This document shows positions 49 to 56,031 of a stretch of 64,000 nt of DNA, one piece after another. The stretch is from Nitrosopumilus sp. (GTDB lineage: Archaea; Thermoproteota; Nitrososphaeria; Nitrososphaerales; Nitrosopumilaceae), in contig OZ245003.1 of the NCBI GenBank assembly GCA_965223425.1, positions 1,696,001-1,760,000 on the forward strand. Direction: 5' to 3'. Position numbers and translations under genes: made by a program. The first letter of the stretch is position 1, and each line of letters starts with the position of its first letter. The notes under the pieces were generated by a model. That model was not told the origin of the DNA, searched no databases, and worked only from the letters and a program-made list of their open reading frames with translations.

Positions 49-714
49 ATGGCAAAACAAATTCTCAAACAGATTGCAAAAGCAATCGCAATAACCGTGA
101 TTGTAGTGATTACGGCATCCATTGTGTGGACATTTGTTGTTCCGATGCTGCCACTGAGCCAAGTGTCAGATATTGTAGAAGAGAATGTGAAAGAGCCGTT
201 AGAGAAACTTGTTTCACAAACACCGCTTGCACCAGATGAGCAAGTCACAAATGGAACGCCAAAGAACAATGACGCCCCATCGTCATACGATGACATTGAC
301 GACCCGCCATCGGACATAGTTACCTCATATGATCCACCAGACATGGATTTTCTGAACAGTGGCACTGTAACCAAAGTCATTGACGGCGACACGATTGATA
401 TCGACAACATGCGATTCAGACTTGCTCTGATAGACACTCCTGAGAGAGGCGAGGCCGGATACAATGAGGCAAGGATGTTCCTGTTGAAGAACTGTCCCGT
501 ACAGTCGTTGGCACTGTATGATATCGACGACAAACAGAAGACGGACAAGTACGGACGATACATAGGAAAGGTATGGTGTTATGGATATCCACCTGTCGTT
601 CCTGAAAATTCCATGAACAGCAAACTTGTAAACGAGGGACATGCAGTGGTTGTCTCAACGTTTTGCAGGTCAAGCGAATATGGAAATGAGCAGTGGTTAG
701 ACCCACACTGCTAG
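49..714 (+). CDS. Membrane-anchored thermonuclease (SNase-like) family protein
   Basis: N-terminal TM helix; motifs VIDGDTI, RLALIDTPE, DKYGRYIG, LVNEGHA. Confidence 0.85.
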   Translation: MAKQILKQIAKAIAITVIVVITASIVWTFVVPMLPLSQVSDIVEENVKEPLEKLVSQTPLAPDEQVTNGTPKNNDAPSSYDDIDDPPSDIVTSYDPPDMDFLNSGTVTKVIDGDTIDIDNMRFRLALIDTPERGEAGYNEARMFLLKNCPVQSLALYDIDDKQKTDKYGRYIGKVWCYGYPPVVPENSMNSKLVNEGHAVVVSTFCRSSEYGNEQWLDPHC

Positions 715-791
715 TATTGTTCTCTTTCACATACCATCCCCCCCCTTTTTTTCTAATCAAATTTTTTGTACGGACATCTGATTATTTTTTC

Positions 792-867
792 GTGACCTGG
801 CATGTCATCCCAAATCTTGCACCAGTATGTTCAAACATACCTGACAGGCAGGCAAGTGTGGGGATGA
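792..867 (+). ncRNA. Structured intergenic motif, type A, copy 1
   Basis: GTGACCTGGCATGTCATCCC...GGGATGA; outer stem TCATCCC/GGGATGA, CTTGC/GCAAG, inner hairpin TATGT-TCAA-ACATA; preceded by T-tract. Confidence 0.65.
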
Positions 868-868
868 T

Positions 869-954
869 GGTGAGTTTACCTAGCAAGGTAAGGTGTCCGA
901 CTGATAATCGGAATGTCTGTCAGGACAGCGTGGGTTCGAATCCCACACTCACCG
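869..954 (+). tRNA. Class II (long variable arm) tRNA with GAU anticodon and G73 discriminator
   Basis: Acceptor GGTGAGT/ACTCACC-G; D-stem ACC/GGT; anticodon arm TCCGA-CTGATAA-TCGGA; variable arm TGTCT-GTCA-GGACA; T-arm GTGGG-TTCGAAT-CCCAC; no encoded CCA. Confidence 0.85.
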
Positions 955-1009
955 TAATACTCCTGCATATTAAAACATTCAGGAGAGAAATTCAAAAAAG
1001 TGAACAAAA

Positions 1010-1393
1010 ATGGGAATGTATGATGAGGTCGTAGCGGCCATAACATGTCCCTGCTGCAAGAGAAGGTATCTGGATTATGGAATCCAAACAAAGAACTTTC
1101 GGTGCGTACTCTCCAAAATATTTGAAAATGACGACACGAGGAATATTGTGGAGGAAAGGAAATCGTTTGGAAACATAAGGAACGAGACGTTCAAATGTTT
1201 TACATTCTGTGTAATGTGTTCTGCGGGAATCAATATGACAGGAGTCATATCAGAATATGTGTTTCGTGGAGTCAAGGCGGACTCGTTTAATGAGAATATA
1301 AAAAGGTCCGGAACAGATGGAATTGCAATTGATCCCTCCATCATGACAGAAAATGGAAACCATGCAGCAGAAAACGGACTGCTAAAACCCTGA
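1010..1393 (+). CDS. Cys-rich hypothetical protein (MGMYD...CPCC...QTK), copy 1
   Basis: 127 aa ORF, near-identical second copy at 2146-2529. Confidence 0.75.
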   Translation: MGMYDEVVAAITCPCCKRRYLDYGIQTKNFRCVLSKIFENDDTRNIVEERKSFGNIRNETFKCFTFCVMCSAGINMTGVISEYVFRGVKADSFNENIKRSGTDGIAIDPSIMTENGNHAAENGLLKP

Positions 1394-1403
1394 TTATTTT
1401 TTC

Positions 1404-1479
1404 GTGACCTGGCATGTCATCCCAAATCTTGCACCAGTATGTTCAAACATACCTGACAGGCAGGCAAGTGTGGGGATGA
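1404..1479 (+). ncRNA. Structured intergenic motif, type A, copy 2 (followed by a deleted cassette: tRNA 5' 20 nt joined to the 3' end of the 127-aa ORF)
   Basis: Identical to 792-867; 1481-1500 is the tRNA start, then the sequence jumps to CCGGAACAGATGG of the ORF end. Confidence 0.65.
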
Positions 1480-1596
1480 TGGTGAGTTTACCTAGCAAGG
1501 CCGGAACAGATGGAATTGCAATTGATCCCTCCATCATGACAGAAAATGGAAACCATGCAGCAGAAAACGGACTGCTAAAACCCTGATTATTTTTTC

Positions 1597-1672
1597 GTGA
1601 CCTGGCATGTCATCCCAAATCTTGCACCAGTATGTTCAAACATACCTGACAGGCAGGCAAGTGTGGGGATGA
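1597..1672 (+). ncRNA. Structured intergenic motif, type A, copy 3
   Basis: Identical to 792-867. Confidence 0.65.
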
Positions 1673-1673
1673 T

Positions 1674-1828
1674 GGTGAGTTTACCTAGCAAGGTGTCGCC
1701 CCGATGAGACGATTGCTTCTGAATTAACATCGCTGGTTCAAATCCCGCACTAACCTCCATTAGTTGTTTCGTTCAGTGTGCGAGCGTCTTAGAAGTGGAC
1801 ATCGTGGGTTCAAATCCCACACTCACCG
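1674..1828 (+). ncRNA. Expanded tRNA-like RNA (GAU loop, shortened D-arm, ~85-nt variable region containing a second T-arm-like motif), copy 1
   Basis: Same acceptor and T-arm as 869-954; internal GCTGG-TTCAAAT-CCCGC-ACTAACC; identical copy at 3384-3538. Confidence 0.6.
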
Positions 1829-1922
1829 TTACAACCCTCAATATTAGACCATTAATGAGGTAAATTCAAAAGTGAAAACCATGCAGCAGAAAACGGACTG
1901 CTAAAACCCTGATTATTTTTTC

Positions 1923-1998
1923 GTGACCTGGCATGTCATCCCAAATCTTGCACCAGTATGTTCAAACATACCTGACAGGCAGGCAAGTGTGGGGATGA
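1923..1998 (+). ncRNA. Structured intergenic motif, type A, copy 4
   Basis: Identical to 792-867. Confidence 0.65.
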
Positions 1999-2002
1999 TA
2001 AT

Positions 2003-2090
2003 GGTGAGTTTATCTAGTAAGGTAAGATGTCGCCCTGATGAGGCGATTGCTTCTGACGGAGCATCGTGGGTTCAAATCCCACACTCACCG
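2003..2090 (+). tRNA. Second class II tRNA with GAU anticodon and G73 discriminator
   Basis: Acceptor GGTGAGT/ACTCACC-G; D-stem ATC/GAT; anticodon arm TCGCC-CTGATGA-GGCGA; variable arm TGCTTC-TGAC-GGAGCA; T-arm GTGGG-TTCAAAT-CCCAC. Confidence 0.85.
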
Positions 2091-2145
2091 TAATACTCCT
2101 GCATATTAAAACATTCAGGAGAGAAATTCAAAAAAGTGAACAAAA

Positions 2146-2529
2146 ATGGGAATGTATGATGAGGTCGTAGCGACCATAACATGTCCCTGCTGCAAGAGAA
2201 GGTATCTGGATTATGGAATCCAAACAAAGAACTTTCGGTGCGTACTCTCCAAAATATTTGAAAATGACGACACGAGGAATATTGTGGAGGAGAGGAAATC
2301 GTTTGGAAACATAAGGAACGAGACGTTCAAATGTTTTACATTCTGTGTAATGTGTTCTGCGGGAATCAATATGACAGGAGTCATATCAGAATATGTGTTT
2401 CGTGGAGTCAAGGCGGACTCGTTTAATGAGAATATAAAAAGGCCCGGAACAGATGGAATTGCAATTGATCCCTCCATCATGACAGAAAATGGAAACCATG
2501 CAGCAGAAAACGGACTGCTAAAACCCTGA
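2146..2529 (+). CDS. Cys-rich hypothetical protein, copy 2
   Basis: 2 aa differences from 1010-1393. Confidence 0.75.
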   Translation: MGMYDEVVATITCPCCKRRYLDYGIQTKNFRCVLSKIFENDDTRNIVEERKSFGNIRNETFKCFTFCVMCSAGINMTGVISEYVFRGVKADSFNENIKRPGTDGIAIDPSIMTENGNHAAENGLLKP

Positions 2530-2539
2530 TTATTTTTTT

Positions 2540-2608
2540 GTGACCTGGCAATCCTTCCAAACCCGCATCAGATGAGCAATCATCCTGACAGGCAGACGGG
2601 TGTGGGAA
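2540..2608 (+). ncRNA. Structured intergenic motif, type B, copy 1
   Basis: GTGACCTGGCAATCC-TTCCAAACCCG...ATGA-GCAA-TCAT...TGACAGGCAGA-CGGGTGTGGGAA. Confidence 0.65.
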
Positions 2609-2645
2609 TGGCGCGGTGTTTGAGACATCAAAGGTAAAACATACA

Positions 2646-2975
2646 ATGAATGCAAAAGGAGCCATAACACATCTGGTAAAAAGGCCGATGGGAGTCGTCT
2701 TTACAGGAATGCTGATTTTTGGGCTGTTCCTGATGATTGGAGGTGACTCGGGCGTACCGGAAATACTGAGAATATGGCCAGTCTACGGAGTGTTTATTAT
2801 TCCTGCCATAGTAGGAATAACTATGCTGCTACTTACTGCTGATGAGGTATCCAAGATACACGGACGTTTTGACTCAGTAGAGTCAAAGCTGGACAAGCTG
2901 GACAATATAGAGTCAAAGCTGGACAGCATAGAGTCAATTCTGAAAGAGATAGCGGGATATCTAAAACCAAAGTAG
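2646..2975 (+). CDS. Small 2-TM membrane protein with C-terminal coiled coil, copy 1
   Basis: Two hydrophobic helices then heptad repeats (SKLDKLDNIESKLDSIE); paralog at 6259-6609. Confidence 0.75.
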   Translation: MNAKGAITHLVKRPMGVVFTGMLIFGLFLMIGGDSGVPEILRIWPVYGVFIIPAIVGITMLLLTADEVSKIHGRFDSVESKLDKLDNIESKLDSIESILKEIAGYLKPK

Positions 2976-3007
2976 CACACGGCAGTTCTCACACATTCAT
3001 TTTTTAT

Positions 3008-3077
3008 CTGACCTGGCAATCCTTCCAAACCCCGTATCAGATGAGCAATCATCCTGACAGGCAGACGGGTGTGGGAA
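3008..3077 (+). ncRNA. Structured intergenic motif, type B, copy 2
   Basis: Near-identical to 2540-2608. Confidence 0.65.
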
Positions 3078-3111
3078 AGGCATCAGACATTTGCGATGTC
3101 CTAGATCAAAA

Positions 3112-3276
3112 ATGAAAAACTATGAAGAAAATTTTGAAGAATGGTGTGCAGAATATGAAAACACAATGCACAGCAATGGTTCTGAAATTATGACCCGTAC
3201 GGACGGCGACATCGGAATCAAATACGTTGTCAGGAAAGACACCGACGGATGTGGCGCATACCTCATCTGGGAGTAA
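3112..3276 (+). CDS. Small acidic hypothetical protein
   Basis: 54-aa ORF filling the cassette between two motifs. Confidence 0.5.
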   Translation: MKNYEENFEEWCAEYENTMHSNGSEIMTRTDGDIGIKYVVRKDTDGCGAYLIWE

Positions 3277-3306
3277 TTACAACCTGAAAACACCAACTAT
3301 TTTTTC

Positions 3307-3382
3307 GTGACCTGGCATGTCATCCCAAATCTTGCACCAGTATGTTCAAACATACCTGACAGGCAGGCAAGTGTGGGGATGA
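3307..3382 (+). ncRNA. Structured intergenic motif, type A, copy 5
   Basis: Identical to 792-867. Confidence 0.65.
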
Positions 3383-3383
3383 T

Positions 3384-3538
3384 GGTGAGTTTACCTAGCA
3401 AGGTGTCGCCCCGATGAGACGATTGCTTCTGAATTAACATCGCTGGTTCAAATCCCGCACTAACCTCCATTAGTTGTTTCGTTCAGTGTGCGAGCGTCTT
3501 AGAAGTGGACATCGTGGGTTCAAATCCCACACTCACCG
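3384..3538 (+). ncRNA. Expanded tRNA-like RNA, copy 2
   Basis: Identical to 1674-1828. Confidence 0.6.
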
Positions 3539-12452: not shown

Positions 12453-13292
12453 ATGGCGCAAGAACAAATACAGAAGGAACGGACGACAATAATTGTAATG
12501 AATGGCGGCCAGGTCAAGTCATTTAGGAAAGCAGTACAGCTGATTAATAATCAGGTTGGCGGCGAACTGACTTTCAGAATAAGGGACGGATTTATCCATT
12601 TACAAAAAATGGATCCCGGCCATGTCTGCATGGTCGACTTTAGGTTCCGTCCATCACACATTCATGAAAGTCACAAGCAGTTTGGAATACATTCAAACGA
12701 CCTGTACCAGATAACCAGACACCTGAGGAATGATTCCGAGGTGGAAATGGCAATCAAAGATAAAACCATGACCATCTTTGTATATGACGGAAGCTTCGGT
12801 ATGGATGAGGCGGTGGAAATAGCCATCAAAGATGAAACCATGACCATCCCCGCATTTGATAAAGTGTCAAAAAGACACGTACTAAAAGTCAGTGAGGGCG
12901 ACATATGTGACTGCTTCCTGCCGTGTGTAAAGTACACACACCGGATAAACATGGCAAAAGAGCATGTCGGGGAGATAACATCAAAGCTGAAACAGTTTGA
13001 TTTTATGAAAATCAGAATTGAAGACCAGAACGTCACGTACGCGGCAAAAAACAGCATCAGGGATGTAAAATTGGAACTGTGTCACGAGATCGGGGAGTGT
13101 AATGGAATTATGGATTCAGAGTATGACATGAAATTCCTGCCACAGGCATTTAAAATTTGCACGCAGATCAGCGAGTGTGAGTTGTACATTGCCAGTGAAA
13201 GTCCGCTCAAACTTGCAGTCAAAAACGATGATCTGAGCATCGATTATTACCTGGCCCCACGGATTAAAGATTCGGGCAGTGCAACGGAATAA
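12453..13292 (+). CDS. Divergent PCNA (DNA sliding clamp)-like protein
   Basis: MDPGHVCMVD near N-terminus, SPLKL and C-terminal YYLAPRI are PCNA signatures; PCNA-like length. Confidence 0.75.
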   Translation: MAQEQIQKERTTIIVMNGGQVKSFRKAVQLINNQVGGELTFRIRDGFIHLQKMDPGHVCMVDFRFRPSHIHESHKQFGIHSNDLYQITRHLRNDSEVEMAIKDKTMTIFVYDGSFGMDEAVEIAIKDETMTIPAFDKVSKRHVLKVSEGDICDCFLPCVKYTHRINMAKEHVGEITSKLKQFDFMKIRIEDQNVTYAAKNSIRDVKLELCHEIGECNGIMDSEYDMKFLPQAFKICTQISECELYIASESPLKLAVKNDDLSIDYYLAPRIKDSGSATE

Positions 13293-13294
13293 AA

Positions 13295-15583
13295 ATGGAC
13301 AAACAAAAAATCTACAAGCCGACACTAATCTCTGAGAACGCACTGGATATTCCGAATCCCGGATATGCCGGCAAGATGCCCGATGGCACGCAGGACGGCT
13401 TTATCTCAACCAAGATAGAGGAGGACGTAACAATCCAGAGGATATCCCACGATCTGTACAAGCATGCGTCATCGGGATTCCGCGAACTGTTTGTCAATGA
13501 GGCAAGATTCTGCAGACATGCGCGCGACTGCCATGACGCAGACCCGGTCATAAACGTGAAAATAGGCAAGAACCGCGAGCTGATAATCGAGGGCCGTGAC
13601 TCCATGGGGATGTCATGGGAGACATTCAGCAACGTGTATACGGTACTTGGCAGGTCCACCAACTTTGACGGCCAGACGCCGGGACAGTTCGGCTTTGGCC
13701 GGGCGGCATACACATGTCTCTCCGAAATCATGATAATGGAGGTCCACTCGCGCGAGACCGGCGAAAAGTTTGCCGTGATGGGCAAAAACGGAGTGGGGTG
13801 GCAGACCGGACTTCCGACACCGGAAGACATGGACTTTTTCGGATGCAGAATAACCATGACATTGTACGATGACGTAGATATCAGGTCAATCATCAGAATG
13901 ATGAAAAACTGCTGCAAACTGAGCGGCGTCCGGGCCACGCTGGACACAAGGGACGCACTGGACATCATCGATTTTGGCTACGGGGATGACCAAAGTGCAT
14001 ACCGCGCATACGAACCAGGAACTCTTGAAGGCATGTATAACAAGTTGATTGATACTGAACGCTGCGATCACGTGCTAGACATCTCTGCCGAAGAAGGCGG
14101 AATAGAGATGATGATCGGATACCAAGTGCAAACATGGTCAGAGGAGAGGGGTCCTAAGCGTAGAATGATACACACGTATACTGAAAATAACGAATGCTAT
14201 CTTGCAGGCGTTCCAATTGGGGAGCTGAAAATCGACAGTAATGTGCATTCTCTGCTGGGTTCTGCAAATACAATTCTGGTCAACATCAAAGACGAGCGCA
14301 CGTACAGTCCCACCCCCGACAGGGAGAGGCTAAAGGACGATGCGGAGAAAAGGATATGCGACATAGTGGAGAACAGGATATGGTGCGAGATTAGGGACCG
14401 CTTTTCCGGCATCAAAACAGTCGATGACTATGTCAATCATCCCAACAGGGAATTCATTGACGGGGTTTTCAACAGCAGAGACGACCATTGGTCATTTATG
14501 ACTGAAAACCACATGGAACTGGGAAGGGCCATGGCAGTCACCCTAGTTGATGAAAACAAACGGCACATAAATCTTGAATACATCGCACCCGGCCGGAAGG
14601 AGCTGCTGATCACGGACAAAATGAGCAGGTCAAAGGTATCTGCTGCCAAAGAGTTCAGTCAGGCAGTGAAGGTGGTCAGGCCCCTTGATTATGAAAACAC
14701 CCATTCACTCTTTGAGAACCTGGGGGTGCGCACCCTTGATGACTATATCGCCAGCAACGGCATAACTGTCAAAATGATTGAGAGTGACGATGTACCGGAG
14801 CCGTTTGTAATCCATGAGACACATTATGGTTACTGGAATTCAGAAAACCATAATGTATTGTTCAAAAAATCAACCAGAAACACGACTGACTGCGACATGC
14901 CGGACAACGTCATCATAGCAAAGAAAAACTTTGGAATGCTGTGTGATTTGCTGAGAACAGTTGAAACAGAATACCGTGTAACAAAGTACAAAAAAACGGC
15001 AAAGGGCGGACTGCGTGAGGAAGAGTTCTTTGAGCGTGTGAGAAAATCGGCATATGCCACAAATGACGGGCCAATGGGCATAGATGACATATCCGAGACG
15101 GATAAAAAAATCGTCATGGTACCATACGAGCGTGAATCGCTTGCAAAATACATGCAGTCCGACAAGATTCTATACGTTGTCGGCAGCGATGACAAGCTCT
15201 TTGAGATGTCTGCGCATCTAAAGATGCACAAGAGGGAATTCCACATATCAGACACGAAATATAGATTCAGGGATTATAATAAAGAGATCATGTTTCCTGA
15301 GGAATATTTCAAACTGATAAAAGGGTATATTGCTCATGTCGATTCTTTCTCAGACCAGATCAAGATATGCTCGGCATACATACATGGATACCGCGCGATC
15401 AAAAACGAGGACGCAAGAAAGATGTTTCTGGGATTCGTGCTAGGTACAAAACACAACCATGACATCCGATACCCCGATGTATCACAAATGCTGGAAAGGG
15501 CGTTTCACATCGATGAGTCGCTGGAAAAGAAAACAAAGGAAAATGGACAAACAAAAAATCTACAAGCCGACACTAATCTCTGA
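13295..15583 (+). CDS. GHKL (Hsp90/HATPase-like) N-terminal domain protein, rIIA-like, copy 1
   Basis: DLY...FRELFVNE, RDSMGM, LGRST, GQFGFG motifs; TPDRERL; 762 aa. Confidence 0.7.
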   Translation: MDKQKIYKPTLISENALDIPNPGYAGKMPDGTQDGFISTKIEEDVTIQRISHDLYKHASSGFRELFVNEARFCRHARDCHDADPVINVKIGKNRELIIEGRDSMGMSWETFSNVYTVLGRSTNFDGQTPGQFGFGRAAYTCLSEIMIMEVHSRETGEKFAVMGKNGVGWQTGLPTPEDMDFFGCRITMTLYDDVDIRSIIRMMKNCCKLSGVRATLDTRDALDIIDFGYGDDQSAYRAYEPGTLEGMYNKLIDTERCDHVLDISAEEGGIEMMIGYQVQTWSEERGPKRRMIHTYTENNECYLAGVPIGELKIDSNVHSLLGSANTILVNIKDERTYSPTPDRERLKDDAEKRICDIVENRIWCEIRDRFSGIKTVDDYVNHPNREFIDGVFNSRDDHWSFMTENHMELGRAMAVTLVDENKRHINLEYIAPGRKELLITDKMSRSKVSAAKEFSQAVKVVRPLDYENTHSLFENLGVRTLDDYIASNGITVKMIESDDVPEPFVIHETHYGYWNSENHNVLFKKSTRNTTDCDMPDNVIIAKKNFGMLCDLLRTVETEYRVTKYKKTAKGGLREEEFFERVRKSAYATNDGPMGIDDISETDKKIVMVPYERESLAKYMQSDKILYVVGSDDKLFEMSAHLKMHKREFHISDTKYRFRDYNKEIMFPEEYFKLIKGYIAHVDSFSDQIKICSAYIHGYRAIKNEDARKMFLGFVLGTKHNHDIRYPDVSQMLERAFHIDESLEKKTKENGQTKNLQADTNL

Positions 15584-17819
15584 GAACGCACTGGATATTC
15601 CGAATCCCGGATATGCCGGCAAGATGCCCGATGGCACGCAGGACGGCTTTATCTCAACCAAGATAGAGGAGGACGTAACAATCCAGAGGATATCCCACGA
15701 TCTGTACAAGCATGCGTCATCGGGATTCCGCGAACTGTTTGTCAATGAGGCAAGATTCTGCAGACATGCGCGCGACTGCCATGACGCAGACCCGGTCATA
15801 AACGTGAAAATAGGCAAGAACCGCGAGCTGATAATCGAGGGCCGTGACTCCATGGGGATGTCATGGGAGACATTCAGCAACGTGTATACGGTACTTGGCA
15901 GGTCCACCAACTTTGACGGCCAGACGCCGGGACAGTTCGGCTTTGGCCGGGCGGCATACACATGTCTCTCCGAAATCATGATAATGGAGGTCCACTCGCG
16001 CGAGACCGGCGAAAAGTTTGCCGTGATGGGCAAAAACGGAGTGGGGTGGCAGACCGGACTTCCGACACCGGAAGACATGGACTTTTTCGGATGCAGAATA
16101 ACCATGACATTGTACGATGACGTAGATATCAGGTCAATCATCAGAATGATGAAAAACTGCTGCAAACTGAGCGGCGTCCGGGCCACGCTGGACATAAGGG
16201 ACGCACTGGACATCACCGGTTTCAGCATCCATGAGCACGAAAGAAAGTACCTCACATACAAACCGGGAACTCTTGAAGGCATGTATTACGCGTCGACTTA
16301 CTGTGACGACGGCGAGCACCTGCTAAACATCTCTGCCGAAGAAGGCGGAATAGAGATGATGATCGGATACAAAACGAAAGAACGGTCAGAAGGAAGAGGC
16401 CCTAAACGCAGAAGTGTGTCCTCGTATATTGAAAATAACGAATGCTATCTTGCAGGCGTTCCAATTGACGAGCTGAAAATCGACAGTAATGTGCATTCTC
16501 TGCTGGGTTCTGCAAATACAATTCTGGTCAACATCAAAGACGAGCGCACGTACAGTCCCACCCCCGACAGGGAGAGGCTAAAGGACGATGCGGAGAAAAG
16601 GATATGCGACATAGTGGAGAACGCGATAGGGTGCGAGATTAGGGACCGCTTTTCCGGCATCAAAACAGTCAATGACTATGTCAACCATCCCGACAGGAAA
16701 TTCATTGACGGGATTTGCAACAACGAACTCAACTTTCGGTCAATTCTGACTGAGAACCTCATGGAACTGGGAAGGGTCCTGGCAGTCACCCTAGTTGATG
16801 AAAACAAACGGCACATAAATCTTGAAGACATCGCACCCGGCCGGAAGGAGCTGCTGATCACGGACAAAATGAGCAGGTCAAAGATATCTGCCGCCAAAGA
16901 GTTCAGTCCGGCAGTGAAGGTGGTCAGGCCCCTTGATTATGAAAACACCCGTTCACTCTTTGAGAACCTGGGGGTGCGCACCCTTGATGACTATATCGCC
17001 AGCAACGGCATAACTGTCAAAATGATTGAGAGTGACGATGCCGTGCGGCCGTTTGTAATCCATGAGACGTCCCACAGCGACGCGGACATTGGATGCGGCA
17101 GTGAGCAGTTCAGAAAAACAACCACAAACACGACTGACTGCGACATGCCGGACAACGTCATCATAGCAAATAAAAACTTTGGAATGCTGTGTGATTTGCT
17201 GCGGACATTCGACACCAAATACCGCGTAACAAAGTATAGAAAAACGGCAAAGGGCGGACTGCGTGAGGAAGAGTTCCTTGAGCGTGTGAGAAAATCGACA
17301 TATGCCACAAATGACGGGCCAATGGGCATAGATGACATATCCGAGACGGATAAAAAAATCGTCATGGTACCGTACGACAGGGAATCGCTTGCAAAATACA
17401 TTCCATCCGAGGAGATACTGTACGTTGTAGGCACCTACGACAAGCTCTTTGAGGTGTCGGCCCATCTGAATGTGAATGGGAGGAAATTTCACGTGTCAAT
17501 CATAAGATGCGGCTATGGCCTTAGGAGTGAGTCAACCATGTTCCCTGAGAAACACATCAAACTGATGGAGGAATGTCTGGTTTACGACACGGAATGGCGC
17601 GACCAGATCAAGATATGTTTGGCGTACATAGACGGCCACCACACGATCAAAAACGACAACATAAAAAAGATGTTTCTGGGATTCGTGTCAGGTTCAAAAC
17701 ACAACTACAACATACGATACCCCGATGTATCACAAATGCTGGAAAGGGCGCTTTGCATCGACGAAGAACTGCAGAACCAAACAAAGGAAAATGGCACACA
17801 CGTCACTGGCAATACTTGA
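15543..17819 (+). CDS. GHKL domain rIIA-like protein, tandem copy 2
   Basis: First ~215 aa identical to copy 1, then alternating identical and divergent blocks. Confidence 0.7.
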   Translation: MDKQKIYKPTLISENALDIPNPGYAGKMPDGTQDGFISTKIEEDVTIQRISHDLYKHASSGFRELFVNEARFCRHARDCHDADPVINVKIGKNRELIIEGRDSMGMSWETFSNVYTVLGRSTNFDGQTPGQFGFGRAAYTCLSEIMIMEVHSRETGEKFAVMGKNGVGWQTGLPTPEDMDFFGCRITMTLYDDVDIRSIIRMMKNCCKLSGVRATLDIRDALDITGFSIHEHERKYLTYKPGTLEGMYYASTYCDDGEHLLNISAEEGGIEMMIGYKTKERSEGRGPKRRSVSSYIENNECYLAGVPIDELKIDSNVHSLLGSANTILVNIKDERTYSPTPDRERLKDDAEKRICDIVENAIGCEIRDRFSGIKTVNDYVNHPDRKFIDGICNNELNFRSILTENLMELGRVLAVTLVDENKRHINLEDIAPGRKELLITDKMSRSKISAAKEFSPAVKVVRPLDYENTRSLFENLGVRTLDDYIASNGITVKMIESDDAVRPFVIHETSHSDADIGCGSEQFRKTTTNTTDCDMPDNVIIANKNFGMLCDLLRTFDTKYRVTKYRKTAKGGLREEEFLERVRKSTYATNDGPMGIDDISETDKKIVMVPYDRESLAKYIPSEEILYVVGTYDKLFEVSAHLNVNGRKFHVSIIRCGYGLRSESTMFPEKHIKLMEECLVYDTEWRDQIKICLAYIDGHHTIKNDNIKKMFLGFVSGSKHNYNIRYPDVSQMLERALCIDEELQNQTKENGTHVTGNT

Positions 17820-24911: not shown

Positions 24912-25196
24912 ATGACCTGGACACGGAAGATAATCGGCGACGGCATTCCCGGTGTGATAACACCAGCTGAGATACGCAATGCCATTGGAAACTATGAGAT
25001 GGCGTTTTTCAGAAAAAATGGAAAATGGCGTCTCGGACCGAATGTCCTCTCATCATACAACGGCACTGAGGACTGCGGCATAGATCTGCTCCATGACACA
25101 GACGAATGTGATTTTTCAGAGGACTATACTGTCACTGATTATATCACCAGTGTCCTTGATGCACACGAAGATGCAGAAAGTGAACGGCTCCGTTGA
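24912..25196 (+). CDS. Hypothetical protein
   Basis: 94-aa ORF. Confidence 0.55.
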   Translation: MTWTRKIIGDGIPGVITPAEIRNAIGNYEMAFFRKNGKWRLGPNVLSSYNGTEDCGIDLLHDTDECDFSEDYTVTDYITSVLDAHEDAESERLR

Positions 25197-25360
25197 ATGG
25201 AGCAGTGTCCACTTGACTACATCTACAATGACTTTGTGGCAGAGTCAAAGAAATGGAACGGCTCCGTTTAATGGAGCAGTGTCCACTTGACTACATCTAC
25301 AATGACTTTGTGGCAGAGTCAAAGAAATGGAACGGCTCCGTTTAATGGAGCAGTGTCCAC
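25182..25360 (+). repeat. 74-bp tandem repeat x2.4 (31-nt palindromic unit three times, 43-nt unit twice)
   Basis: GAACGGCTCCGTT(G/T)AATGGAGCAGTGTCCAC at 25182, 25256, 25330. Confidence 0.85.
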
Positions 25361-25396
25361 CTTTCTGAAAACAGATCAACAAAGGAGGTTGATAAC

Positions 25397-33270: not shown

Positions 33271-33530
33271 AGGCGGCAAAGTTTGGGAACGGGGATGCGA
33301 TAGAGAGATACATACACTGTTCGATGTGCTTGGACACCGTCCCTACCGGACAGAGCCCGCAGGAATGGTCGCGCTATGAGGTGGGGTTAACAAAGTGGGG
33401 AATTCAGATATGGTGCGCACGCCACAAATGCAACATAATGCACATAAACTTTGAGGGAGAGAGGCACCCGGCAGACATGACGGCAACAGAGCCGAGCAGA
33501 AAAAGCCGTCAGATGAAGGAGGAGGAATAA
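33267..33530 (+). CDS. Small Cys/His protein
   Basis: HCSMC, SPQEW, VGLT.WGIQIWC.RH..N....FEG. Confidence 0.7.
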   Translation: MKAAKFGNGDAIERYIHCSMCLDTVPTGQSPQEWSRYEVGLTKWGIQIWCARHKCNIMHINFEGERHPADMTATEPSRKSRQMKEEE

Positions 33531-33925
33531 TGGTGGGAACAAACGCGCTGGCAAAGACATTTGAGGCACTGGACCGGCACGACTCACACATGAGAACATT
33601 TCGTCGTCTGTACTGCGAGTCAGGACAGACAGCAAGAAAGGCGTACATGTTTGTCAATTCCTCAACAAAAACAAGGATTGAAAAAATAATGAAAAAGTGT
33701 GAGAGCTGCAAGTACACAAAGCTGCAACCGAGAACAATAGTGCTGGTCTACGAGGCATTGGCCGCCAAAGGTGAGATAGAGGTTCTGGCAGAGTTGTGCA
33801 GGCAGATCAGTTCAAAGAAGGCATACAGGCTATGCAACAAAAGAACCCAGAGGACAATACAGACGCTGTCCCAAGATGTGAAGGGAAAATCACACAAAAC
33901 ACCAAAAAAACAAAAAAGGGAATAA
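33530..33925 (+). CDS. Basic hypothetical protein
   Basis: GGAGGAGG SD; last ORF before the ncRNA zone. Confidence 0.65.
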   Translation: MVGTNALAKTFEALDRHDSHMRTFRRLYCESGQTARKAYMFVNSSTKTRIEKIMKKCESCKYTKLQPRTIVLVYEALAAKGEIEVLAELCRQISSKKAYRLCNKRTQRTIQTLSQDVKGKSHKTPKKQKRE

Positions 33926-34137
33926 TCCCCCTGATGATTCTGTAGCAAATAAAATGAGCCTCCATACCGGGGTGTTGTTTGCTGCAGATGCTTGACTGTC
34001 GTTGTATGACGAGAGTCGGGTGGCCCAGTCCACACGGGCTTGGCCGAAACCATGAGAGTGTGCCGATGAACATCGGCATACTGATGATGGCAGCAATGTC
34101 ATCAGATGCACAGATATTGTGCAGTCATGGTCGGGGA
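33926..34137 (+). ncRNA. Hammerhead-core-containing multi-hairpin RNA, copy 1
   Basis: TCCCC-CTGATGA ... GGCC/GGCC-GAAA-CCATGA ... TCATGG-TC-GGGGA. Confidence 0.55.
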
Positions 34138-34232
34138 AAAAGAATCAGACTAACAGAATAAATCAACTACTTGCTCCCCATGATTCTGAGGCAAAGGAAA
34201 AGTTATCACCAAAAAAACAAAAAAGGGAATAA

Positions 34233-34444
34233 TCCCCCTGATGATTCTGTAGCAAATAAAATGAGCCTCCATACCGGGGTGTTGCTTGCTGCAGATGCTT
34301 GACTGTCGTTGTATGACGAGAGTCGGGTGGCCCAGTCCACACGGGCTTGGCCGAAACCATGAGAGTGTGCCGATGAACATCGGCATACTGATGATGGCAG
34401 CAATGTCATCAGATGCACAGATATTGTGCAGTCATGGTCGGGGA
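34233..34444 (+). ncRNA. Hammerhead-core-containing multi-hairpin RNA, copy 2 (307-bp period)
   Basis: One substitution relative to copy 1. Confidence 0.55.
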
Positions 34445-34634
34445 AATAATAATGATCACGTAATAATCAAATCGTCCTTACTTACCCTGATTCTGAGGCA
34501 AAGGAGAAACGGCCCCACAAACGTGGTGCCGGCAGGCCGTACAAGCTGCATGCCATTCAATGTTTTGTATTTGATAATATGTCAAATGCGCAAGCTGCAT
34601 CTGCTGATTGCAGACCCGCGCGTGTTTACGTGAA

Positions 34635-34909: not shown

Positions 34910-35016
34910 ATCACAGTACAGGAAAAGACATGGACGTATTGACTTGGTTCTCAGCACCTGCGCCGTCTCCGGCACCATGTAATCACAGTACAGGAAAAGA
35001 CATGGACGTATTGACT
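34910..35016 (+). CRISPR. Mini CRISPR-like array: two identical 35-nt repeats and one 37-nt spacer; no cas genes in window
   Basis: Repeat ATCACAGTACAGGAAAAGACATGGACGTATTGACT at 34910 and 34982; spacer reverse complement matches 19687-19723 at 34/37. Confidence 0.65.
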
Positions 35017-35052: not shown

Positions 35053-35089
35053 CCAAGTTCACCCAAGTTCACCCAAGTTCACCCAAGTT
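35053..35089. repeat. 10-bp tandem repeat CCAAGTTCAC x3.7
   Basis: Directly visible, upstream of the RM gene. Confidence 0.85.
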
Positions 35090-35122: not shown

Positions 35123-39279
<4,157 letters not shown>

Positions 39280-39280
<1 letters not shown>

Positions 39281-39909
39281 TGCAGGACAATATCACCGAC
39301 TTTGCCCTTGAAGAGTACAGGGAACACTACAAGAACGATAAAATAGAAAAAAACGACATCTTCTTCTACATCTACGGCATTTTACACCACGGCGGGTACA
39401 GGAAGAAATATGCAAACAACCTGACACGTGAGCTGCCACACATTCCCATGGCACCGGACTTTTTAGCATTTTCAAAAATTGGAAAAGAATTGGCAGATCT
39501 ACATTTATCATATGAGACATGCAAGAGATATGATTTGGGAAAACCAAAATCAGAATTTGGCAGATACGCAAAGATGTCGTTTGCAAAAAAGAAGGAAAAC
39601 GGCAGGCAGGTAACTGACACTACAACCCTGAGGATCAACGGGATAACCGTCTTTGAGAATATCCCTGATGTCAAGTACAGGGTAAACGGCAGGACGCCAT
39701 TGGAATGGGCCATAGACCGCTACAGGAGAACAGTAGACAAGGACAGCGGCATAGTAAATGACGCAACAGACATTGACGTCATACCGCTCATTGAAAGGCT
39801 CATACATGTAGGGGTGGAATCAGACAGGCTGGTATCCGGACTTCCAAAGGAGTTTGAGCCGAAAAACTGGGACCCGAAAAAAACAGGAATGGACAAGTTC
39901 ATTGGTTGA
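39280..39909 (+). CDS. Type ISP RM C-terminal domain encoded as a separate ORF
   Basis: DNITD, DIFFYIYGILH, LPHIP, GKELADLHLSYE, Y.VNGRTPLEW. Confidence 0.8.
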
Positions 39910-39922
39910 AATTTGACTGAGA

Positions 39923-40462
39923 TTGTCAAGTTGTGTGATCCATGCAGGTGCCCCCCAAAATGTGACGAAAGGCCCATCAAAATCTGATACACACCACAAG
40001 GTCACCACAGAATCAGACCACAGGAACAGTCGGCATCAGAAAAAAAGACGCACTGAATACAACCACGTCAGATATCAGGTGATGCCAAAGCTGCACATGA
40101 TACAAAAGACGAAAAAAGAGACCTACAGAACCACAAGGCACGAGTCGTACAGCATTGTGATACCGTATGAAATATCCAAGAGTTTTCACATAGCAGACGG
40201 TATGACTCTGCATGCAACGGTATCAGAGGACACGGGAACAGTGAGGTTGCACAGGAATCCAAAGGAAAACTCCATGCGAGTTTTACTGCGACACAAACTC
40301 ACAAAGACCTACAAGAAACAGAAATACCACTCCACGCGAGTCACGATACCGATCGAGATTGTCAAGAGGCTGAAACTGGCAAAGGGGGATCAGATCGACG
40401 TTACAGAGTCAAAAAACAGCCTTGTTCTAAGGAAGACAAAACTGCACCGAAATTTGCCATAG
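39923..40462 (+). CDS. Double AbrB/SpoVT-like DNA-binding protein (start probably downstream)
   Basis: SYSIVIPYEI and TRVTIPIEIVKRLKLAKGD. Confidence 0.65.
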   Translation: MSSCVIHAGAPQNVTKGPSKSDTHHKVTTESDHRNSRHQKKRRTEYNHVRYQVMPKLHMIQKTKKETYRTTRHESYSIVIPYEISKSFHIADGMTLHATVSEDTGTVRLHRNPKENSMRVLLRHKLTKTYKKQKYHSTRVTIPIEIVKRLKLAKGDQIDVTESKNSLVLRKTKLHRNLP

Positions 40463-54608: not shown

Positions 54609-54714
54609 TTGAATCATAAAAATTTTTCCGAAAGATTTAGATCCATTTTGATCGCCGCAACAGGTAATGGAATCTTCAGAACAGACGATACGCAGGCTGC
54701 AAAGGGAGCTCAAG

Positions 54715-54894
54715 CAAAAGGACACAGCAATCAGGCAAAAGGACACAGCAATCAGGCAAAAGGACACAGCAATCAGGCAAAAGGACACAGCAATCAGGCA
54801 AAAGGACACAGCAATCAGGCAAAAGGACACAGCAATCAGGCAGAACAACACAGCAATCAGGCAGAACAACACAGCAATCAGGCAGAACAACACA
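54715..54894 (+). repeat. 21-bp tandem repeat x8.6 encoding QKDTAIR/QNNTAIR heptads
   Basis: CAAAAGGACACAGCAATCAGG units; cut off by IS630 insertion. Confidence 0.9.
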
Positions 54895-54896
54895 TA

Positions 54897-56031
54897 GTAA
54901 GCACATAAAAAAACTGAATCATTTTGACAATTATTTTTGGCCAAAAGATCCAAGACCGGCCATATCGCACACACTGCATGTACAAACAAAAAAAGAGACA
55001 GGCTGCAGGGGGGCAAAATTTCTGCCAAACACCGGCGTTGCAGACCTCAAAAGGGCATACAAAAAAGAGACCGATCCCAGAAGGCGCGACAGGCTGCTTG
55101 CGTACATGCAGCGCAAGGACGGCGTGCCGCTAGACAGGATCGGAAGAATGCTGGGAAGGCCCAAGTCCACCATATCTGCATGGCTCAACCGCGCACAAGA
55201 CGAGGGAATACGCGCAAGGTTCGAGCGCAGCGGCAGGGGACGAAAGCGTTTGATAGACGGACTGCAGACAAGACAGCTTGCAGCAGACATGGATGCGGGG
55301 CCGGAGTCATGCGGCTTTGAGAGCAGCCTGTGGGATTCCAGCCTCGCAAGGCTGCACATCAAGCGAAAGTTCGGCGTGCAGTACAGCAAGGCAGGCGTGC
55401 TGCAGCTGGTCAGGGAGATGGGCTTTTCGTGGAGCAGGGCGCGTCCAAAAAACCCCAAGTCAGCCTCAAAAAGAAAGCAAAAAGAGTTTCAGGAGCGGGC
55501 AAAAAAACCCGTTGCAGAAAAGTCGGCGCAGGGATACACCGTACTGGCAAACGACGAGTCCTCGATTCAAAAGGCATCAAACAGGCCCGGCTACGGGTGG
55601 AGAAGGCGCGGCAGACATGCCACATCCCCATCTTTTTTGTCACGCAAGAGAAGATACATTTGGAGTCCTGTCAGCAAACGCATTTTACCTTATGTTCTAT
55701 GAAAAGCCAGACAGCGACGGCTTTTGCAGCTTTTTGGAACGGGTTCACAAAAGATTCGGCAGGGTGCTGCTGTCTGTGGACAATGCGTCATATCACAAAT
55801 CCAAAAAGGCAAGGGAGTTTCTGGAAAGATACAACGGCGAGACAGTTCTGGAATGCCTGCTGCCGTACACGCCGGAGCTTAATCCCATTGAGATGCAGTG
55901 GAGGGTGATAAAGCGGGTACTGTCTGCAAAGGTGTTTGGCACGCTAGATGAGATGGAGCAGTCAGTACGCAAGCTGTTTGCCAGAAAGGAGATCCTGCCT
56001 GTGAAAATGTTCAATTATTTAATATGCTAAC
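54897..56031 (+). mobile_element. IS630-family element with frameshifted transposase
   Basis: TA flanks; imperfect TIRs; ANDES, DNASYH, PYTPELNPIE..W motifs. Confidence 0.85.

Follow-up and report, generated by a model that had tools for sequence, protein, structure and literature searches.

A 64,000-nt stretch of a Nitrosopumilus genome (contig OZ245003.1; hereafter the window) carries, on its plus strand, two tandem copies of an RNA that is a member of a real, conserved structured family, and that is probably a self-cleaving hammerhead ribozyme of a new architecture, in which the strand of the catalytic core is split by a folded module. We place the probability of this reading at roughly 60%, judging from the sequence and its relatives. 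The fold is a five-way junction, comprising a 5-bp closing stem (stem I), two inserted hairpins (P2 and P3), stem II (P4) and a branched stem III (P5) with three more hairpins. The components, in window coordinates, are as follows.

33926-34137, plus strand: RNA copy 1, a 212-nt five-way junction with a hammerhead core
34233-34444, plus strand: RNA copy 2, 212 nt
33926-33930 with 34133-34137: stem I of copy 1, UCCCC with GGGGA, 5 bp
33931-33937: CUGAUGA of copy 1
33939-33988: inserted hairpin P2 of copy 1
33990-34021: inserted hairpin P3 of copy 1
34022-34045: stem II (P4) of copy 1, GGCC...GGCC, abutting GAAA
34046-34049: GAAA of copy 1
34050-34055 with 34125-34130: stem III (P5) of copy 1, CCAUGA with UCAUGG, enclosing three hairpins (34049-34055 with 34125-34131 when the A15.1-U16.1 pair is included)
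34130-34132 and 34437-34439: GUC triplets of copies 1 and 2
34132: C17 of copy 1, with the predicted cut at 34132/34133
34238-34244, 34353-34356 and 34439: CUGAUGA, GAAA and C17 of copy 2, with the predicted cut at 34439/34440

The two near-identical units are offset by 307 nt, and Tandem Repeats Finder detected 2.0 copies of this period, with 94% matches, over 33900-34505. Their sole difference across the 212 nt is a T at 33978 in copy 1 and a C at 34285 in copy 2, the latter introducing a C.A mismatch into P2; the minimum free energies (MFEs) are -105.0 and -101.5 kcal/mol respectively, and the corresponding scores with covariance model R1 are 258.9 and 257.1 bits. When a 251-nt piece was folded, the plus strand reached -106.4 kcal/mol, compared with a mean of -67.5 kcal/mol for shuffled sequences (z = -8.9, with none of 200 shuffles as good), whereas the minus strand gave z = -2.1. 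As the MFE structure of copy 1 also holds approximately 12 G.U pairs, the fold is that of a plus strand RNA, and these pairs and the strand asymmetry together rule out a hairpin acting at the DNA level. A coding explanation was also rejected, as the repeat holds only short open reading frames (ORFs), distributed over both strands, and the substitutions within its helices are compensatory. Contigs derived from the reads of two samples, from two studies, span the junction from copy 1 through the spacer to copy 2, including a 127-nt contig at 34110-34236, and contig depth over the repeated unit is approximately twice that of the flanks. The duplication thus cannot be an assembly error confined to this record, although one of the two samples may be the source of the window's own assembly.

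Members of the family occupy 10 places in nine other genomes, scoring 36-90 bits with R1 (E values of 1e-9 to 3e-26), and range in length from 147 to 222 nt, the shortest lying at L033:1901-2047. The first relatives were reached through the 131-aa gene that precedes the RNA, for which two clusters of homologs provided a protein alignment; the first Nitrosopumilus locus found encodes a 203-nt RNA, scoring 68 bits with R1, directly after its homolog of this gene. Comparing the protein alignment with 400 genomes of the family identified seven further carriers, of which six belong to the genus and the seventh to a different one, and scanning all 150 other genomes of the genus with the core pattern added two carriers and two chance matches. 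The pattern that brought in genomes G264 and G450 itself required CCCCUGANGA and CGAAAC, and the set free of this bias consists of the window and seven genomes. The two window copies and the 10 other places constitute the 12-row alignment A7, which was fitted to the model's structure and is composed of closely related sequences, drawn from one genus and a single second genus; distant members in which stem I has diverged may be missed by R1. The RNA is single-copy at all 10 of the other places, as judged from the fetched loci, such that the tandem arrangement is found only in the window's genome, which has these two copies alone. One relative, G274, carries two nearly identical modules of gene plus RNA approximately 179 kb apart (C1:255447-255571 and 434247-434371), so that the element itself is duplicated there.

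Searches further afield delimited this distribution. BLAST of the RNA against a phage collection returned no match, and against 300 genomes of the family it returned short matches only, two of which, in G291 and G177, were the 5' ends of true homologs. Pattern scans of viral contigs gave no matches, and these contigs held no relative of the 131-aa protein; for a neighbouring 249-aa protein, none was found in either the viral contigs or the 400 family genomes. A class-wide protein search of 400 genomes added no carrier, its two partial matches lying in 403-aa ORFs with no RNA nearby, and loci L038, L039 and L085 contained no RNA. All six pattern matches in metagenomes were chance occurrences in coding-like sequences.

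Each row of the alignment, folded independently, has the same five-way junction as its MFE structure (12 of 12). In alignment A7, 94.1% of the cells at paired positions are paired, compared with 77.6% in shuffles, and 49 of the 78 pairs have changed on both sides, compared with 4-12 in slid controls. These double changes affect 11 of 14 pairs in P2, 4 of 8 in P3, 4 of 9 in stem II and 4 of 7 in the outer part of stem III, and none of the five pairs in stem I, which is invariant save for one C-to-U change that yields a U.G pair. The interior of P5 varies from nothing to three hairpins across rows, as is allowed for the loop of a hammerhead stem III. Between A9 and G10.1, every row contains an insert of 83-93 nt that forms two covarying hairpins, laid out as one nucleotide, P2, one nucleotide, P3 and zero or one nucleotide, with a conserved AAAUGA/UGUU internal loop within the module.

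The unpaired core is preserved throughout this drift. C3, U4, G5, A6, G8, A9, C11.1, G12, A13, A14, the A15.1-U16.1 pair and the C15.2-G16.2 pair are identical in all 12 rows, as is the string C-GAAA-C, and the pairs at A7 columns 155/182, 186/352 and 187/351 (G10.1-C11.1, A15.1-U16.1 and C15.2-G16.2) are invariant. Variation is confined to two positions, both of which are free in the CUGANGA and NUH consensus: at N7, 11 rows have U and one has A (CUGAAGA in G177), and at position 17 four rows have C, six U, two A and none G (giving GUC, GUU and GUA respectively). The first-pass annotation had described hammerhead elements in type I order, and each was confirmed against the sequence; it had also proposed a homolog search and covariation analysis as the check on an expanded hammerhead variant, and the 10 other places bear this out, since CUGANGA, GAAA and GUH have been conserved rather than lost, while stems II and III and both inserted hairpins covary.

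This core is the basis of the hammerhead reading, because approximately 20 bits of it lie on the correct strands of the junction, and are conserved in a hammerhead-specific manner amid drifting helices, which is hardly attributable to chance. The competing proposal, that this is an unrelated structured RNA, such as a five-way junction binding a ligand or protein, in which the hammerhead letters arose by coincidence, would account for the failure of every hammerhead covariance model to match, for the junction being five-way rather than three-way, and for the further CUGAUGA that lies within a plain hairpin of copy 1 (34081-34087). Indeed, the Rfam hammerhead models (RF00163, RF00008, RF02276 and their clan) matched neither the window region nor five homolog loci, even at E <= 10, and whole-genome scans with hammerhead models returned nothing above the cut-off. 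However, coincidence would have to have placed the core letters on the correct strands, in the correct order and with the correct closing pairs, and then restricted their variation among homologs to N7 and H17, and we therefore judge it improbable. The version of this proposal in which the RNA is an archaeal C/D box sRNA or k-turn fails, as there is no D box CUGA beside the 3' strand of stem I, and the partner of CUGAUGA is instead GAAA, at a different junction. The Rfam C/D models produced only chance-level matches on the window, all outside the RNA. Elsewhere in the genome, two 22.7-bit matches to a hammerhead model were discarded, as they lack CUGANGA.

We nevertheless do not class the RNA as a plain member of the hammerheads, because one defining feature, an uninterrupted Block C, fails. 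The A9 phosphate and the G10.1 base form a known metal site of the hammerhead, and both are retained here. Were the strands to leave as in the crossover of a four-way junction, A9 could still stack on G10.1, making the insertion sterically conceivable. A contact between stems I and II was sought, as either a tertiary interaction or a consistent loop-loop complementarity with L2, and none was found in the alignment; the P2-P3 module may replace this missing contact, or act as a control domain. In Eckert et al. 2023, Block C, the run of CUGANGA directly into stem II, is treated as uninterruptible, with no more than 1-2 nt between them (PMC10085705), and Perreault et al. 2011 report that core insertions of even 1-2 nt can sharply lower hammerhead activity (PMC3088659).

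These precedents feed the proposal that the RNA derives from a hammerhead but does not cut, the insertion having killed catalysis and the fold now serving, for example, as a stable mRNA 3' end or a protein-binding platform. The insertion occupies a spot with no known precedent in active hammerheads (PMC10085705), and small core insertions already impair activity in the examples of Perreault et al. (PMC3088659); furthermore, stem I is invariant and the flanking AGGGAA and GGGGAAA are conserved, which suggests constraints beyond pairing, and a single 131-aa gene closely accompanies the RNA. Yet a dead ribozyme would be unlikely to keep all 11 of its unpaired catalytic letters in every one of the 12 rows as each helix changes around them, or to avoid only G at position 17, and we consider loss of cleavage unlikely. 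If the RNA does not cleave, it would still be a well-supported new structured RNA family, either derived from the hammerhead junction or converging upon it.

The surroundings of stem I include the following sequences.

33877-33922, plus strand: conserved leader, comprising a UGUGA/UCACA hairpin (33877-33894), an A-rich tract and AGGGAA (33917-33922)
33918-33929: competitor hairpin GGGA-AUAA-UCCC, pairing GGGA (33918-33921) with UCCC (33926-33929)
34138-34232, plus strand: spacer, with a box of approximately 26 nt (34178-34203), after which the A-rich leader and AGGGAA recur

That an upstream hairpin competes with stem I had been suggested by the first-pass annotation, and the competitor is indeed present, its AGGGAA standing 5' of stem I in all 12 rows. 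In the MFE structure of the 251-nt piece it forms, and stem I shifts to a register that pairs C3-U4-G5. The two registers are isoenergetic, with that of the hammerhead costing copy 1 only 0.2 kcal/mol (-104.8 versus -105.0 kcal/mol), which, like the lack of covariation in stem I, counts against the main reading. The (A/U)GUGA...UCAC(U/A) hairpin and the run of A are present in most homologs. The possibility that the RNA has its own promoter was not adopted, as the TATA-like TTTATAAA, which some homologs carry 21-28 nt 5' of stem I, is missing from others and from the window.

The box of approximately 26 nt recurs after copy 2 at 34487-34509, such that one lies approximately 45 nt 3' of each copy. 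By eye, it resembles the 5' end of the RNA, with eight identical bases in a row and scattered matches, but it can alternatively be likened to a downstream short ORF or a C/D-like motif. A related C-box-like motif, (A)UGAUGAUU, lies 24-49 nt 3' of the RNA in G359, G264 and G014, with a partial AUGAUU in G274, and is missing from this position in 5 of the 10 members (G353, G322, G177, G450 and G291). In G014 (L037:2056-2113), the motif is a weak match to a C/D-box sRNA (sR35, 24.3 bits, E value of 0.02); elsewhere it opens a short ORF beginning M(M)IL, and L031 and L060 carry it at the equivalent place. The short-repeat boxes near each copy suggest that the duplication arose via unequal exchange.

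The genome is archaeal, with an SSU that scores 1460 bits under the archaeal model and 1090 bits under the bacterial one, and the RNA is embedded in an integrated element, within a run of approximately 40 kb of plus strand genes that mostly match no family, exceptions being an ArdC-like anti-restriction protein and a DUF2958 domain. Three genes define its surroundings.

33530-33925, plus strand: 131-aa gene preceding the RNA, without a Pfam or PHROG match
35402-39909, plus strand: Type ISP restriction-modification gene (Pfam Type_ISP_C, ResIII, ISP_coupler and N6_Mtase), cargo in the variable region
39923-40462, plus strand: AbrB/MazE-like gene (Pfam MazE_antitoxin), marking the end of the variable region in most of the related elements

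Homologs of the 131-aa protein, with approximately 45-53% identity, are encoded directly 5' of the RNA in all nine of the fetched loci compared in other genomes, G264 being omitted from this comparison because its contig spans only 2.5 kb. The AlphaFold model of the protein is all-helical, with a pLDDT of 81, and its fold had no match in the PDB at E <= 0.001. All nine loci share the upstream genes of the element, the 131-aa gene and the RNA, which are then followed by a variable stretch of 0.7-6 kb; the content of this slot differs by locus, with the Type ISP restriction-modification gene in the window and a purD-like gene in G359. Homologs of the AbrB/MazE-like gene were located 0.7-2.9 kb 3' of the RNA in G177, G291, G450, G274 (in two places) and G359. 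As this gene is present in only 3 of 18 relatives of the same genus, it belongs to the element and not the host.

We infer both cleavage and a role for it. The RNA would be co-transcribed with the plus strand genes of the element and then fold, with the weak upstream GGGA/UCCC hairpin yielding to stem I. P2-P3, inserted after A9 and ahead of the opening pair of stem II, converts the three-way junction of a hammerhead to a five-way one. Self-cleavage after position 17 would give the upstream mRNA a 2',3'-cyclic phosphate terminus, with the folded ribozyme retained at its 3' end, and would release the A-rich downstream RNA, carrying the cargo, with a 5'-OH. The cut would thereby part the conserved core operon from the cargo, whose region is variable. 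In bacteria, hammerheads are concentrated in prophages, where they flank blocks of genes (Perreault et al., PMC3088659), and the position of this RNA at the border of gene blocks matches that habit.

It was also proposed at first that the tandem copies could release a 307-nt monomer in the manner of retrozymes. Were both copies to cut, they would yield a 307-nt RNA (34133-34439), which the host's RtcB ligase, identified in the genome with a score of 589 bits, could circularise. Extended to the family, this becomes the proposal that it exists to free a unit-length RNA from between a pair of ribozymes, to be circularised and perhaps copied, akin to retrozymes or viroids. In keeping with it, this genome has two cut sites 307 nt apart and a host RtcB, and a purine repeat flanks each unit, with AGGGAA upstream and GGGGAA downstream. 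Nevertheless, monomer release did not hold up as a general property, as the RNA is single-copy at the 10 other places and has only these two copies in its own genome. The element is itself full of other tandem duplications, so that of the RNA looks incidental, and there is no cut site 5' of AGGGAA; we regard a retrozyme-like purpose as highly improbable. On the preferred reading, in which a single self-cleaving hammerhead variant lies at the border of core and cargo, the tandem would be a local duplication in this genome.

The element has further features of its own. At its left edge, two tRNA-like genes (868-955 and 2002-2091), typed by ARAGORN as tRNA-Ile(GAU) and scoring 56-60 bits with the Rfam tRNA model, sit among 193-nt repeats containing tRNA fragments (696-3403); at 88-90 nt, and with a long extra arm, they are unusual for tRNA-Ile. 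Between 6917 and 31965, 12 sites carry a near-identical hairpin enclosing a Shine-Dalgarno sequence (TCAAC-AAAGGAG-GTTGA), with an ATG 5-7 nt further on; it precedes at least 12 genes of the element and looks like a shared translation-control signal. A 2248-bp tandem duplication (13292-17800) has produced two paralogs of approximately 770 aa without family matches (13295-15583 and 15459-17819), and a 74-nt unit is repeated three times in tandem just 5' of the ArdC-like gene (25175-25396), where it could constitute a structured RNA or iterons. Between the RNA and the restriction-modification gene lie a 34-nt direct repeat, tcacagtacaggaaaagacatggacgtattgact (34911-35016), and 3.7 copies of CCAAGTTCAC (35053-35089). 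The Type ISP gene is split into overlapping frames (35402-39280 and 39157-39909), each matching part of Type_ISP_C, which could reflect a frameshift or a phase-variable gene. Further along, at 54668-54919, an ORF-rich region contains at least nine copies of a 21-nt repeat (approximately TCAGGCAAAAGGACACAGCAA), which perhaps encode a repeat protein.

The most ambitious form of the self-cleaving reading would make this RNA an active five-way-junction ribozyme, and the first hammerhead known in nature to have its catalytic strand divided by a two-helix domain. P2-P3 would then act either as the tertiary brace missing from the short stem I or as an allosteric switch, responding to a ligand or protein, that sets when the core transcript is severed from the defence or cargo genes; we would give this fuller proposal even odds. 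Our literature searches returned nothing on hammerheads in Nitrosopumilus, none relevant for Thaumarchaeota, and nothing relevant on a five-way junction, large insertion or new variant of the hammerhead, while the alignments in the supplements of PMC3088659 and PMC10085705 might hold a related variant.

The potential significance follows from what is conventionally assumed, as hammerhead searches, Rfam models and permutation theory all take CUGANGA to run straight into stem II. If the RNA is active, an insert of approximately 90 nt at this site would widen the definition of the class, as Block C would be interruptible between A9 and G10.1; searches based on descriptors would be missing a whole layer of ribozymes; and nature would have supplied a scaffold for placing sensor domains in the core instead of the stem loops. 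It would also add a ribozyme family to the ammonia-oxidising archaea, in which we found none reported, and the RNA has a testable role where the core genes of an archaeal mobile element meet its cargo.

Known systems offer both parallels and contrasts. The discontinuous mammalian hammerheads HH9 and HH10 accommodate large non-core sequence in a working hammerhead, within a stem loop rather than the core, and the glmS ribozyme-riboswitch joins a self-cleaving RNA to a sensing domain. Both are analogies for a possible role of P2-P3, although the insert here is in the core, and its function as a sensor is hypothetical. The closest likeness is to the type I hammerhead (RF00163, Hammerhead_1), with which the RNA shares the order of elements (stem I, CUGANGA, stem II, GAAA, stem III, H17 and stem I), the invariant letters, the A15.1-U16.1 and C15.2-G16.2 pairs, an open stem I and the avoidance of G17. 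Whereas that ribozyme is a three-way junction of approximately 45-60 nt, this RNA is a five-way junction of 147-222 nt, with a module of 83-93 nt and an invariant stem I of just 5 bp, and the Rfam models do not match it.

Comparison with the retrozymes and other circular RNAs generated by hammerheads (PMC5680766) applies to this genome only, where two direct repeats contain the core and a unit with ligatable ends is possible. Other members of the family lack the repeat, and the setting differs, being an integrated DNA element in an archaeal host. The core-insertion hammerheads of Perreault et al. 2011 (PMC3088659) are likewise natural, often found in prophages or other mobile DNA, and tolerant of extra core nucleotides, but these insertions are of 1-2 nt (A6a, U13a and G2a-C2b) and often reduce activity, whereas here a two-helix domain is inserted at another position. 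Finally, the SGC and CSG permutations of Eckert et al. 2023 (PMC10085705) provide a precedent for recognising the core in an unpublished form, with covariation as the first evidence. Yet those permutations reorder three intact blocks, whereas the RNA described here retains the classic C-G-S order and splits Block C itself, an arrangement assumed there to be impossible.
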